From Podarcis liolepis (taxonomy: Eukaryota), in NCBI GenBank assembly GCA_965112155.1, contig OZ218106.1: a DNA stretch of 64,000 bases; one strand, given 5' to 3'. Each line of letters starts with the position of its first letter. The first letter of the stretch is position 1. The translations under genes and the position numbers were made by a program. Below are positions 23,955 through 59,877 of this stretch, piece by piece. A model generated the notes under the pieces. That model was not told the DNA's origin. It saw only the letters and a program-made list of their open reading frames with translations, and made no database searches.

Positions 23955-24096
23955 AGAATCAGAATCATTGAGTTGGAAGGGACACTGACGATACTCTAGT
24001 CTGCCCCCTGCAATGCAGGAATATGCAGCTGTTTCATATGGGGATCAAACCTGCAACCTTGGCATTATAAGCACCATGCTCTAACCAACTGAGCTA
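23955..24096 (-). mobile_element. tRNA-derived SINE with CR1-type 3' tail
   Basis: The minus strand begins TAGCTCAGTTGGTTAGAGCATGGTGC...GCAGGTTTGATCCCC (tRNA-like A/B boxes) and ends TCCCTTCCAACTCAATGATTCTGATTCT (CR1 3'-end-like). Confidence 0.8.
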
Positions 24097-24471
24097 TTTA
24101 ATTCCCACTCAGAGTAAGCACATTGAAATTAATAAACCTAGTATAGCCTTGTCTGTTCTGAGAAGGACAAGAATTGAATACCATCCAGTGATTTTCCAAG
24201 GGCTGACAGTCAGGGAAGGGAAAGGACTATCATCCCTGATAAATAATGGGGTCATATGCAAAATACATGGTAATTACTACCTTATGAAATGGCAACATGA
24301 ATGGACAGGCATGCTCTAAATTTTAACATCACAGCTATGCAAACTAACTGTTATATATAAACACTCTGAACCAGTTACAACCCAATGAGCATTGCCAATT
24401 AAAAATGTTCAGAAAACCAGGTTTATATTAGCAGAATGGTTTGCTCCTGATCTGCAATCAGCTGAAAACTT

Positions 24472-35605: not shown

Positions 35606-37026
35606 TTATGGATAGCTTCATCCTGACCACAGTTTATGTCCTAAGAGTGGTGAGTTGCTATCTAATGCACACAGCCTATGAGAATTGTTCTTATACAGGT
35701 TTTCAACTACAGGTGGGGTTTGAATACACCCTCCTTCAAAATCGTTTCTACAAGAATGTCCACCAGGAGTGCCATATCATATTTTGTGATACAGCAGCTC
35801 TAATTATTGACACATTCCATCTGAAACCCATATGTCTTGGGCACAGCAGGTTCTAAGACCATGCTAACAGTAAGTTAAATCTATGAACTTATCCATTAAT
35901 TAACTGGCTTTCCCTGCCCGCCCACCCCAAATTCCAGTTTCTGAATACAGGTGCTAATTTATTTAGTTGATGCAGGGGGCTTCTTTCAGTTAAATGAAAA
36001 ATCATTTAAGTCACTTTAAACTCTGCCGAAGATTTAGGTTGTGCAGATAGATTATGCTATCAGCGATGCCCATGCTTCTATGGGGATAGTAAATGTGCTT
36101 GGAATGGTATCTGAAAGTATACATTTTAATGCTGTGATTGCTTAATCTATGATGTATGCTTGCAGCTGACTGAGAAATTATCTTTCACTTCCAGCCAAGA
36201 GTAACATTATAGTTTGAGGCAAAGTATGAGCTAAAAAAGTTGATACATAATTTCCACACTCTTAAACTTTAGATTCTCTAATTAGCATCTCTGTCCGAAT
36301 TTCACCAAATTACTTCTTACAAGACAACATCTGCATATATATTAATTGTAAGCATAGATACAAGACCCATGCCCCAACCGCCACAATAGCATCTAATGTT
36401 TTAGGTGTTGATACTCGTCTTTTTGCATATCTTCAAAAACTACACACCGGCCTAACCAAAATGAAGAGCAGATGTACTAATAAAGACATTACAAGCAAAT
36501 TCTGACCTAAGTTACAGCTGTGGAACCCCACCGATTTCTGAGGGGCTTGCCTGGGTGTAAATGAGGGCAGATTTTGCTGTATGCTGTCATGGCATCCATC
36601 ATGATAAGAATGTTTTCATCTGGTTGTGAGGCAGAAGGAGACCTATGCCGTGCTGATAAAGAGTATTACGTGACTGTTCCAAAATTGGCCTTTTATCATT
36701 CTCCGCTTACGTTTTATATGTTTGCTACATGTAGGATACATATGCAGGGCACATGAAGGCTTTGAAGTAGTGCAAATAGCTGAGCAAAACCTCCCTAGAA
36801 AAATCTTGAGCCAGCTGCTGCTATTTCTTACATGTTTTAGATTAAAGCTTCAAGTCTACTCATGCTGGACCACCACAGGAGAAAAACTATGGGACACTGA
36901 ATGTTCTCATGCAGGGTGTTATAGAAACATCTGTGGCAAATTAATCTATCCTTATCCTCTGTGAAAATTCACAGGGTTTAATAGCTTTCTTACCTGTGAA
37001 GGGGTGGTCTAGTTATTGGGCTGCTA

Positions 37027-37057
<31 letters not shown>

Positions 37058-38317
37058 GAAAAAAAATCAACAATGCAACAATGACATAGGTTTGTATCAT
37101 TGGTTTGTTTGCATTATACCTATCCAAGCCACAATAAAGCATTTGAATAATGTAAGAGACATACTGTGTGAGACTGATCTTTTCATTTTAGTAGGTGTGC
37201 GAACATAGCTCGTAGGCATGAGAGCAGAATTCAGAGAGAATTAGAAAGCATTTTATAACTATGTGGAAGCTTGAGAGGGATAATTCATGCCATATAAAAC
37301 TGGCTATTAAATGCCATGGGCTTCCTAATGAGGGTGCACTTTTAGCAGCGGTATACTTTCCAGGGGAAGATGAAAGCAATGGTTTTGGGGTAAAAAGCCT
37401 TCTTAAAGAGGTTCGCTTTTGCCAGCAGTCTCTGTATTTTCAGTGGCCACTCCTGTCTTCAGACTCTCTGTGTGCAAAGTGACCACCTCACACACAAATG
37501 GTCTAGCTCCATAAAATAAAATAAAAATTCTACCATTCCACAATAAAAGCTTCAGAAAATGAAAGGGAAAGGGAAAGGGAAAGGGAAAGGGGGAAAGTCC
37601 TGTTTGGTTGATTGTTAGAGTGCTATGCTTCTTTAAATGAGAAGGATATCATTAGAGGGCTAGACCTGAGGGTTAGCTATTCCAAACCAAATTTTCATAA
37701 CAAATTAGCATAAGCAATCTAGATTATAATTTATCACAAGCATCGGGAAATGGAAGAGCAGTCCTACGAAGGCAGGGGTTGGAGGGGAGAGTCCATTCTT
37801 CCACTTCCTAAGTCCTGCTAGGCCAATGCTGGTCAGGGTCCCCCCCCCCCATGATTTCAGTTGGAGGGGAAACAACTCCAGGGCTAGTATCATTTGTCTC
37901 CCTTATTGGTGGGTGATGTTGGAGGAACAGAAGTGCTGAAGATTCAAGACTTTCCCCAGTATGTTCCCAAGATGCAGTTCTTCAGTCCTTATCTCGGTTG
38001 CAGCTCGAATGGTGGAAGAACAATGGTGGCGGAACTTTCTGCTCTGCAGTGAAGATGCTTCTGGAGGCAGACTTCCTTGCCACCCGCATACAGGAAGATC
38101 TGCAGGGTTGTTCCTTCAATTAGTAATAAAATGACATTTTGTGCGAATGTAATACTATAGAACTCACATTTCATCATTAAAATTCTGAAAGCTTGCAGTT
38201 TTTTCTTTTGAAATGCAATTTTTTTCTTTTAAAAAATAAGCTACAAGTCTTGCTGATGTATCTTAGAATCACAAGGACTACCAAGAGTAAAATGGAAAGC
38301 TGACAGATGAGTGAATA

Positions 38318-38446
38318 ATGGTATCTGAAGAAGTGTGCATGCACACGAAAGCTCATACCAAGAACTAACTTAGTTGGTCTTTAAGGTGCTACTGGAAGGA
38401 ACTTTTTTATTTTGACTATGGCAGACCAACACGGCTACCTATCTGT
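38318..38446 (+). mobile_element. Penelope-like (PLE) terminal-repeat-derived short insertion with 13-bp TSD
   Basis: TSD AGATGAGTGAATA at 38305-38317 and 38447-38459. The body resembles the reptile PLE end motif CTGAAGAAGTG...CACGAAAGCT...GTT(A/G)GTCT.TAAGGTGC...CAGAC.AACACGGCT (from memory). Confidence 0.75.
38319..38360 (+). ncRNA. Minimal type I hammerhead ribozyme motif
   Basis: Stem I UGGUAU (38319-24)/AUACCA (38355-60); core CUGAAGA (38325-31) plus one extra A; stem II GUGUGC-AU-GCACAC; GAAA (38347-50); palindromic AGCU in place of stem III; UC cleavage site at 38353-54. Confidence 0.75.
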
Positions 38447-38599
38447 AGATGAGTGAATAGTCTGACCTGGAATAAGGCAGCACCTTATGTTCTCAGGCTG
38501 CACCTTTGCTGCAAGTCCTTTTCTCAAATGCTACTGGCACACTCTGTCTGGTCCTCTAATGGGCTCAGACAAAGACCCAGGGCCCTATCATTTGTGTCA

Positions 38600-38720
38600 G
38601 ACTTGGACTTCAGATACTATTGGACTCCCAACTCCCATCATCGCTGACTGTTGGCTATGTTGGCTGGGAGTGATGGGAGCTGGAGTCATCATCTGAAGGG
38701 CTGCAGGCTCCCCACCCTTG
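38600..38720. mobile_element. Short palindromic hAT MITE fragment
   Basis: ACTCCCATCATC ... GTGATGGGAGC inverted core; same family as 10658-10782 and 60532-60657. Confidence 0.55.
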
Positions 38721-39376
38721 TTCTATGTGGGTGAGATGCCATTAGCTGAATTTGAACTGTACATAAGTGCAGTAAAGACTTTTTCAATAAGTCAAAGGCA
38801 TCATGACTAGTGGACTGTGCAATTAACAGGTTGAGAAATTACTGGGCTCTGTATATTAACTGTAAGCTGTAATTTATTGAGGTGTAGCTCAACACATTTT
38901 GGGATTTAAAACACAGTGTAATACAGTAGGGCGGTTTTATCAAGCTGTCCCATTTAACAGCCTGTGCAATTTAATGTGCTTCACAGGTGAAAACTAGGAT
39001 GGTGCAAATTAATCAGGCTGTGTTGTTTATTGGAGCTGTACAAAGGTATGTGGCTCATGCAACTCGTTGACTTAGTAGAGGCTATGTGTGTTTAGTAGGA
39101 GCTGCAATACATGGAGTTCAGGTTACTATTAGACCCGCATATCAAACACAATGTGATACTGTAGGAACTGCAAGAGAAGTTGAAGAATGACTACTCAAAG
39201 TGGAAAGAAGGAAAAAGCTCCATAAATGTGGACTAAATGTTACCAAAACTTGAACATATTTTTTATGGGTGAAATTAATACTTTTAAACAAGGATACACG
39301 TGAAATTAGAAGAGTGAAATGCTGATCTGTCAGTATTAGACAAACCCCATTCTAGCTGCAAGTGTTGAGTCCTAAG

Positions 39377-39535
39377 CAGTGTTGTCTTTTCTGGGGGGGG
39401 GGGGACGATGCAGGGGGACGCATAGCCCTAAACATTTTGTGAATCTAAGTTTGGCCTCATTGAGGGGCAGTATTTCAACATGAGAAGGAAAATGAGAGTA
39501 CCCCTAAACATTTTTTTAGGAAAATAAAAGCACTG
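39377..39535. mobile_element. hAT MITE, inverted sister of 11865-12010
   Basis: Contains TGTGAATCTAAGTTTGGCCTCATTGAGGGG (reverse complement of the first copy) and ends AAAAGCACTG; TSD degraded. Confidence 0.85.
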
Positions 39536-40316
39536 GTCAACTCAACTCAGTCTTCCAGAACTTAGCACAAAATCAGATAATTAGCTGAAAAAGCGCTAGC
39601 AAGTATTTTGAAGCATACCAATTGCATGACAGGACCTCAGCGCAGCTTTTGAAATTATTTTTTAAAGTTTTTCAAACTGTGCACTTCCATCTTTTCAGAT
39701 GACCTTTACTAGCTTCAGTTTGTGATGCTCGTATCTGAGACTGAACTCAAAGAAACCAGAAGAGGGTAGGATCATATGAATTCTAATTGCTTTACCTGTT
39801 GTCCTGGCTTGTAAACCTACAGAACATCATGGGGTGATGATCCAAAAACAGACATTTTCTGCCACTGTCTTTGTACTATGAGATTCCCTTCTTTCTACCA
39901 TATGTGAAGCAGCAGGTGTCTTGTAAAGTCATATCTTTTTGCCCAGGCTTTCCCTGATCCATAAGGCTGGACCTTGTTTTTATTTGTCTGAATTCCTGTA
40001 TTTGCTTTTATAGGCTTTTCTTGATGTCATGTTTTTGTTTTGATCATATTGTTTATTGTTTTAATGGTGCATGCTGCTTAGAGAGTTTGTAAATATTGAA
40101 CCATCAATTAAGCAATAAATTGAGAAGATTCCTAATGCTGTATACCACAACCCATGGGCACATTGACAGAAGCACCCACCAATTCTCCCTTATTATTTAC
40201 AGCTCTTCCCTGGCCCATTGCTTTTATAAAGGGAAAGATTTTTATGTAATTTGAAATTCAGCCTTCTTCTGAATCTTTTTTGGTTAAAAAAATCATTCAG
40301 CATTTGTATGTGTGTG

Positions 40317-41966: not shown

Positions 41967-42365
41967 CAGTGGTCCCCAGTTACCTAAGAACTGTGGACCC
42001 CCAGTTCTTCAAAAGCCATGCCATGGACCCCCTACTTTTGAAAATGTTGATATCTCTGTGGTAGTTTTGGTTAGGTGAATGGTGCCACCATATCCTCCAA
42101 CATGTTCCAGTGCGAAACCAAGATGCTTGTCTTTCGGGTCGGGCTCCTGTGCAAGTCATGTGACCCTCACAAGAGCATGGTGCCCCAAAATGCACATTTT
42201 TGTGTGCCATGGCCACAATCTCATGGGGTTCAGGGCATTTTGCTCTCATGTGAAAGCACAGCCAAAATTGGATGTCCTGGACAGTTGATGAGTATGTGGC
42301 ACAGATCCCCTGGATGGGTTATGCGGACCCCCTGGGATCTGCGGACCCCCAATTGGGAACCACTG
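41967..42365. mobile_element. ~400-bp hAT (Charlie-like) non-autonomous element
   Basis: TIRs CAGTGGTCCCCA / TGGGAACCACTG with subterminal GGACCCCC repeats at both ends. Confidence 0.75.
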
Positions 42366-42820
42366 CCATATAGTAAAAGCTATGGTTTTCCCAGTAGTGA
42401 TGTATGGAAGTGAGAGCTGGACCATAAAGAAGGCTGATCGCCGAAGAATTGATGCTTTTGAATTATGGTGCTGGAGGAGACTCTTGAGAGTCCCATGGAC
42501 TGCAAGAAGATCAAACCTATCCATTCTGAAGGAAATCAGCCCTGAGTGCTCACTGGAAGGACAGGTCCTGAAGCTGAGGCTCCAATACTTTGGCCACCTC
42601 ATGAGAAGAGAAGACTCCCTGGAAAAGACCCTGATGTTGGGAAAGATGGAGGGCACAAGGAGAAGGGGACAACAGAGGACGAGATGGTTGGATAGTGTCT
42701 TCGAAGCATGAATCTAACCAAACTGCGGGAGGCAGTGGAAGACAGAAGTGCCTGGTGTGCTCTGGTCCATGGGGTCACGAAGAGTCAGACACGACTAAAC
42801 GACTAAACAACAACAACAAC
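42366..42820 (+). mobile_element. RTE-BovB LINE, 5'-truncated 3' fragment
   Basis: ORF 42382-42711 (MVFPVVMYGSESWTIKKADRRRIDAFELWCWRRLLRVPWTARRSN...) is the BovB ORF C-terminus; it ends in GGGGTCACGAAGAGTCAGACACGACT plus a (CAA)n tail. Confidence 0.95.

Positions 42821-59418: not shown

Positions 59419-59877
<459 letters not shown>

Follow-up and report, generated by a model that had tools for sequence, protein, structure and literature searches.

The window, which is the whole 64-kb stretch of Podarcis liolepis DNA analysed here, carries a 129-bp insert (38318-38446) bounded by a perfect 13-bp target-site duplication (TSD). Every feature named in the original prediction, including this TSD, is found where it had been placed (Table 1). 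The first 43 bases of the insert correspond to the minimal type I hammerhead motif that had been drawn there. A minimal-hammerhead descriptor agrees, with a single match across both strands of the window and none in 200 dinucleotide shuffles. The check suggested at the time, a scan with the hammerhead families of Rfam, matched no family, either at E<=5 in positions 37000-40000 or at gathering score in the window.

The predicted ribozyme has the features of the minimal hammerheads described for metazoan Penelope-like elements (PLEs), as far as the accessible text of PMC4209133 reports them: the core, an extra base before helix II, G10.1-C11.1, palindromic positions 15.2-16.2, a 4-bp helix I and no helix III. 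However, helix II here is a perfect palindrome of 14 nt, with 6 bp and a loop of 2 nt, whereas the hammerheads in that source have 7-8 bp. Minimal hammerheads on truncated PLEs have been known since 2014, and most of those described in the same text are single motifs of such elements, with reptiles included (Cervera and De la Pena 2014, PMC4209133).

The perfect 6-bp stem I of the original prediction is present in the insert, but only four of the six pairs belong to the element. The junction bases 38319-20 stretch the stem from 4 to 6 bp, and the parent bases upstream of the unit differ. In a hand count, 15 of the first 100 non-parental junctions listed have this dinucleotide before the unit (out of 1,791 matches to a pattern that misses roughly a quarter of all such junctions). 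The longer stem I of the insert is an accident of the junction, and the stem I of the element has 4 bp.

Downstream of the hammerhead, the distal pairing that had been proposed is upheld as an 8-bp stem with pair probabilities of 0.93-0.94 for seven of its pairs; the whole unit folds with unremarkable energy (z -0.32). An older PLE family carries a compensatory G-C to A-U change in this stem. A pattern that fixes the older 5' arm and leaves one base of the 3' arm free gave 14 matches, of which 12 have the compensating base; with 12 of the 14 aligned, 11 of 500 shuffles score as high. The compensation is a single inherited change, yet it supports a real stem, which may plausibly be a structure for RT recognition or initiation.

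Four older relics, picked by a core pattern, keep the catalytic core. Between the older and young families there is one two-sided change each in stems I and II, which 53 of 500 shuffles equal. The older relics in the genome have a stem II loop of 4 nt. Loci L183-L199 are relics of this older family; they share the hammerhead core and the distal stem with the young one but differ from it in the sequences of the stems.

Table 1. Features of the insert, the window and the parent locus. Positions are those of the window unless a contig is given.
Feature	Position	Strand	Basis and remarks
TSD, left copy	38305..38317	+	13 bp, 100% identical to right copy (family D8)
Three junction bases not matching parent	38318..38320	+	parent differs here in ORF-linked copies
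Minimal type I hammerhead (predicted)	38319..38360	+	sequence and descriptor match; 15/16 positions self-complementary
Hammerhead stem I	38319-24 / 38355-60	+	sequence
pLTR tip, 127 nt (5' leader of ORF mRNA)	38321..38447	+	97-100% identity to genomic copies
Hammerhead core CUGAAGA	38325-31	+	sequence
Extra A before stem II	38332	+	sequence
Palindromic stem II	38333-46	+	sequence
Putative upstream ORF, 9 codons, ATG in stem II loop	38339..38368	+	read from sequence
Hammerhead GAAA	38347-50	+	sequence; followed by G-C-U-C
Predicted cleavage site	3' of C38354	+	motif
Distal stem, 5' arm	38373..38380	+	pairing prediction; compensatory change in older family
Element RT-endonuclease ORF, first 10 codons	38418..38447	+	ORF P0002 begins at unit 98 in L107
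Distal stem, 3' arm	38423..38430	+	pairing prediction; compensatory change in older family
TSD, right copy	38447..38459	+	13/13 match to left copy
RPS23-like intronless frame	59446-59877	+	in-frame stop near 59656; processed pseudogene
Parent locus L107	G000:C8:51194000-51201500	minus	intact 910-aa ORF, both pLTRs

The parent element

A DNA search of the same genome finds copies of the unit that are 96-100% identical and end near the same two points. Some of these copies have upstream sequence in common, and following it revealed a reading frame that encodes RT and GIY-YIG domains. One locus (L107) is a partial tandem with a period of 3,019, and its intact ORF (P0002) has its ATG at unit position 98. 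The protein matches the Pfam families RVT_1 (47 bits, cut-off 29.6) and GIY-YIG (24.6 bits, cut-off 22.6). Both pLTRs of this locus carry a C-to-U change at the hammerhead cleavage position. A further long open PLE copy lies inside a complex array of tandem and inverted copies (L111).

In L107, the unit is located 180 nt past the ORF stop and overlaps the start of the next ORF. The same arrangement after the ORF stop, mostly at 180 nt, is seen in 19 of 19 endonuclease-bearing copies when the insert's own locus is excluded. Thus, the unit is the tip of the pLTR and also the 5' leader of the ORF mRNA, a leader that contains the hammerhead, a short upstream ORF and the first ten ORF codons. Both the identity of the unit and its place at the pLTR-ORF junction are direct observations. 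The proposed derivation from a PLE is therefore confirmed, since the 127 nt are the pLTR of the ORF-bearing copies. Upstream of the unit, the parent has a TATA-like T at 33 nt and an Inr-like A at 3 nt, which gives a spacing of 30 nt.

The insert extends one base beyond the hexamer TATCTG, and the final base of the 127-nt pLTR tip (38447) is common to the right TSD copy. This terminal hexamer was considered as a trace of a tandem or circular template and rejected, because it is coding sequence (ORF codons 8-10), because both L107 and L111 vary in it, and because few tandem junctions exist.

The parent has the hallmarks of EN+ PLEs as described in the accessible text of PMC8557442 and PMC3846280. 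These are a single ORF with an RT, a CX4CxxC linker and, at the C-terminal end, a GIY-YIG domain, partial-tandem pLTRs, heavy 5' truncation, head-to-head inverted copies, a 30-40 bp tail at one end and TSDs of 7-14 bp. The pLTR that takes in the first codons and bears TATA and Inr-like motifs is likewise common to both.

In P0002, a C-X4-C-X2-C linker precedes the GIY-YIG domain. According to the part of PMC8557442 that treats this feature, a CX2-5CxxC zinc-finger linker between RT and EN is present in Neptune and Nematis and absent from Penelope/Poseidon. Neptune is the linker-bearing clade reported from vertebrates. We therefore class the parent as a putative Neptune/Nematis-type PLE, an assignment made by the linker motif and not by a tree. 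The Poseidon clade had been a first guess, which was dropped once the Cys linker was found in P0002.

Copy number and copy ends

The 39-nt hammerhead has 9,801 exact matches in the genome, and in 2,799 of these the 24 nt upstream are also exactly those of the parent. For a mid-unit 24-mer the count is 16,309, and the reversed controls gave 0. Because 61 of 100 sampled matches sit in inverted pairs, these counts represent arms rather than insertions. Short copies of the PLE's ribozyme-motif end number more than ten thousand, the insert among them. The copies differ from the per-position majority by 0.7% (70 of 10,144 aligned bases, a value biased low by the exact anchor), in agreement with the prediction that the insert is young. 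It is also solo as predicted, in that the locus holds a single unit.

The ends of the copies were mapped in a sample of 100 consecutive exact matches to the mid-unit 24-mer from the first 4.4 Mb of contig C1, each extended against real copies. The 3' ends form two clusters, with 51 at unit positions 83-100, 49 at 124-139 and none deeper into the ORF. The first ten ORF codons cover most of the approximately 35-nt 'tail' between these clusters. The two clusters correspond to the known optional tail (PMC8557442, PMC3846280), which PMC11167929, in its accessible part, ties to two internal RT start sites. Among the 31 inverted pairs, 28 combine one short and one long 3' end (binomial P about 2e-6, by hand).

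The 5' ends are distributed differently, with 35 copies extending upstream (to -883), 32 cut within the unit and 33 ending in a 7-nt window at the edge of the hammerhead. Only 3.4 ends would be expected in this window among the 68 copies at risk, given the flanking truncation rate (P about 1e-24). This strong hotspot bears out the view in the original prediction that the copies are more than randomly truncated ends. The two 3'-end clusters and the one 5'-end hotspot are both observed directly. A strong 5' hotspot at the hammerhead edge goes unmentioned for EN+ PLEs in the accessible text of PMC8557442 and PMC3846280, unlike the family here, and we found no report of one in the main text of the openly accessible literature searched.

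None of the 100 sampled copies has its 5' end at the cleavage site (+35), and a template beginning there was rejected for this reason. A TSD-like repeat of at least 8 nt flanks 18 of the 39 unpaired copies. In L055 (2090-2490), the unit is repeated together with 20 nt of flank at a period of 152, and in L083 a solo unit, with a 12-nt repeat, has inserted into an older copy of this element.

Possible origin of the short copies

We propose, with a probability of roughly 0.7, that the insert is a copy of the pLTR tip of a young PLE, produced when RT started in the first codons of the mRNA and ran off the 5' end. The GIY-YIG endonuclease would nick the target, and RT would begin on uncleaved RNA at one or the other of two internal sites, as suggested by the anole PLE study (PMC11167929, accessible part). 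An RT bound near the ORF start would copy back about 95 or 130 nt and would then run off the predicted mRNA 5' end, just before the hammerhead motif. The hotspot would mark the start of transcription, and the spacing of the TATA and Inr-like motifs makes it likely that the element RNA begins there. Longer copies may arise from read-through RNA of tandem elements. For the stubs as a class, we lean slightly toward the view that they are run-off cDNAs between the transcription start and the two internal RT start sites.

Several features are shared with the Poseidon element PAc of Anolis carolinensis (Frangieh et al. 2024, PMC11167929). As far as that source is accessible, PAc has the same two internal RT starts bracketing a tail, located some 111-118 nt past the beginning of stem II as here, the same AC-rich stem-loop and the same lack of RNA ends at the cleavage site. 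However, the PAc ORF starts at stem II, whereas here that ATG opens the 9-codon upstream ORF, the main one having its start at unit 98. The anole element belongs to the Poseidon clade and the parent here, by its linker, does not, a point against the run-off reading.

Other PLEs differ in their promoters. The accessible text of PMC3846280 describes rotifer PLEs with a TATA and Inr pLTR that takes in the first 12 codons, and that of PMC2377424 describes a TATA-less internal promoter in D. virilis Penelope. Given the latter, the TATA reading may not transfer, and a SINE-like cycle keeps a small probability.

The junctions of the copies are also informative. A G directly before +1 is in excess (58 of the 100 listed non-parental junctions), which fits the copying of a cap. 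However, many of these junctions are fold-backs, and of the 13 copies whose start lies two bases earlier, 10 have a T before it.

Three raw RNA runs from a related organism, chosen by species label and of which 6-12% each was sampled, were aligned to L107. In the two bulk runs, ORF reads come mainly from one strand, and depth drops toward the 5' end of the ORF. Coverage of the unit is deep from either strand, and its flanks are mixed at +1, 88, 94 and 129-131, as expected if these reads reflect passive transcription of dispersed stubs within other transcripts. Molecule starts do not pile up at the hotspot in the three runs, from libraries that map capped starts poorly, and in the sampled 6-12% of each the cleavage site has no pile of molecule ends. 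One run has a pile of 12 molecules approximately 14 nt upstream of the hotspot. The lack of a start pile at the hotspot and the reads from both strands of the unit count against a run-off origin.

If the short copies are indeed run-off products, the genome would hold, in its thousands of copies, an in vivo map of the RNA 5' end and of both priming sites, and uncleaved RNA would be shown to be the template. The pairs of one short and one long copy would suggest a paired RT that primes the two target strands at separate sites. Read-through RNA of a tandem would be the only template for a full element, and this would explain why PLEs need tandems. The copy ends give testable predictions for the RNA start, for a cleavage event unused in making the template, and for priming sites used one per strand. 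The family could be useful for this purpose, being young and having at least one intact ORF with both pLTRs, whereas the locus itself is an ordinary stub among many thousands. The solo copy was probably dead on arrival because both the TATA-like box and the RNA 3' of the RT start are missing from it. The anole PLE protein needs RNA downstream of its RT start sites (PMC11167929, accessible part).

The main rival is that the 5' hotspot reflects an RT stall or template switch just after the hammerhead on RNA that reaches further upstream, possibly with help from microhomology of the cDNA end to the palindromic stem II. Many of the inverted pairs either meet at this palindrome or have, at the junction, short templated pieces of the first bases of the unit, and 22 of the 33 hotspot ends lie in inverted pairs. 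The missing RNA start at the hotspot in the three runs is also on its side. However, the hotspot persists among unpaired copies (11 of 39), an RT would presumably stall while entering a hairpin and not after leaving it, and the TATA/Inr spacing is exactly 30 nt. We therefore regard a structural stop or switch as unlikely, though it deserves more weight than any other alternative to run-off.

The original prediction had favored an independent non-autonomous unit, SINE- or retrozyme-like, possibly copied from tandem or circular RNA. Under this reading, solo copies would be transcribed from an internal promoter or as tandem or circular RNA and mobilized in trans by the PLE protein. The fixed 5' edge, the TSDs and the high copy number are all compatible with such a unit, and a few tandems do exist. 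Two units lie within one TSD in L056, a tandem with a variant base whose first unit is cut, and a head-to-tail junction pattern has two exact matches genome-wide. The internal promoter of D. virilis Penelope (PMC2377424) and the proposal that retrozymes derive from pLTRs (bioRxiv 2026.07.22.740005), both taken from accessible parts of these sources, point the same way.

However, an independent unit would be expected to have private alleles, and none are found. No position separates the 33 edge-starting copies from the 28 long copies (smallest P 0.48), and the insert's own minor allele at unit 82 is present in both groups. This sharing counts in favor of run-off, and a SINE-like lineage of its own with diagnostic substitutions is not seen. 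In addition, the 5' ends spread continuously on either side of the edge and none lies at the cleavage site, and the two tandem junctions compare with 9,801 hammerhead matches. No joint between unit end and unit start is listed in the three RNA runs, a weak test because the libraries lose small circles.

Non-LTR retrozymes, as described in the accessible parts of PMC7229834 and bioRxiv 10.64898/2026.07.22.740005, share with the unit a type I hammerhead, low GC, a long TSD and a link to PLE pLTRs. They are tandem, with mostly canonical hammerheads and abundant circular RNAs. In contrast, the unit here is dispersed, has a minimal core and is identical to the tip of an autonomous element. Retrozymes carry at least two tandem units with complete hammerheads, and this locus has one. 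We consider an independent unit improbable. The retrozyme- or SINE-like classification is not supported, given the alleles shared with long copies and the identity of the unit with the pLTR of ORF-bearing copies, and the same holds for copying from a tandem or circular template.

It is very unlikely that the edge is a 3' splice site, with a pyrimidine tract and CAG forming an intron end and the copies derived from spliced RNA. The parent sequence immediately upstream does resemble an acceptor, and an intron in D. virilis ends at helix I (PMC4209133, accessible part). However, the edge-starting copies have no upstream exon in common, which also led us to reject a spliced-leader origin, and no splice joint into the edge is listed in the three RNA runs, whose depth is low. 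Recombination between the two direct pLTRs of a full element, suggested for some TSD-less solo pLTRs of rotifers (PMC3846280, accessible part), has a negligible chance of explaining the insert, because the 5' pLTR of full elements bears long upstream sequence that is absent from it, unit-length copies far outnumber the few long elements seen, and junction insertions indicate retrotransposition.

Host context and nearby sequences

Without stem III, the hammerhead of the insert would need a partner copy or the element protein to cut. Cleavage by the anole PLE hammerhead occurs only with protein (PMC11167929, accessible part). In the accessible text of PMC4209133, minimal hammerheads did not cleave when single and cleaved at a low level as dimers, and thus trans-cleavage of host RNA by the insert, which had been raised as a possibility, is unlikely to matter and finds no support in the present data.

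No host exon was identified in the window when 132 stop-to-stop frames of at least 75 aa were compared with Pfam. RPS23 is the only match above cut-off among these frames. ATP6AP1L, a synteny-based guess for the host gene, was rejected because it has no match within the window.

Elsewhere in the window, an open frame at 42292-42708 (+), which has no Pfam match at E<=0.01, presumably resembles the C-terminal part of the ORF of an RTE/Bov-B-type LINE. A borderline tRNA match at 24042-24103 (-) (29.1 bits, E 0.058) is possibly the tRNA-derived head of a SINE. Approximately 170 nt 3' of the insert, a hairpin-like inverted repeat occupies positions 38623-38687 and likely belongs to another short repeat family.
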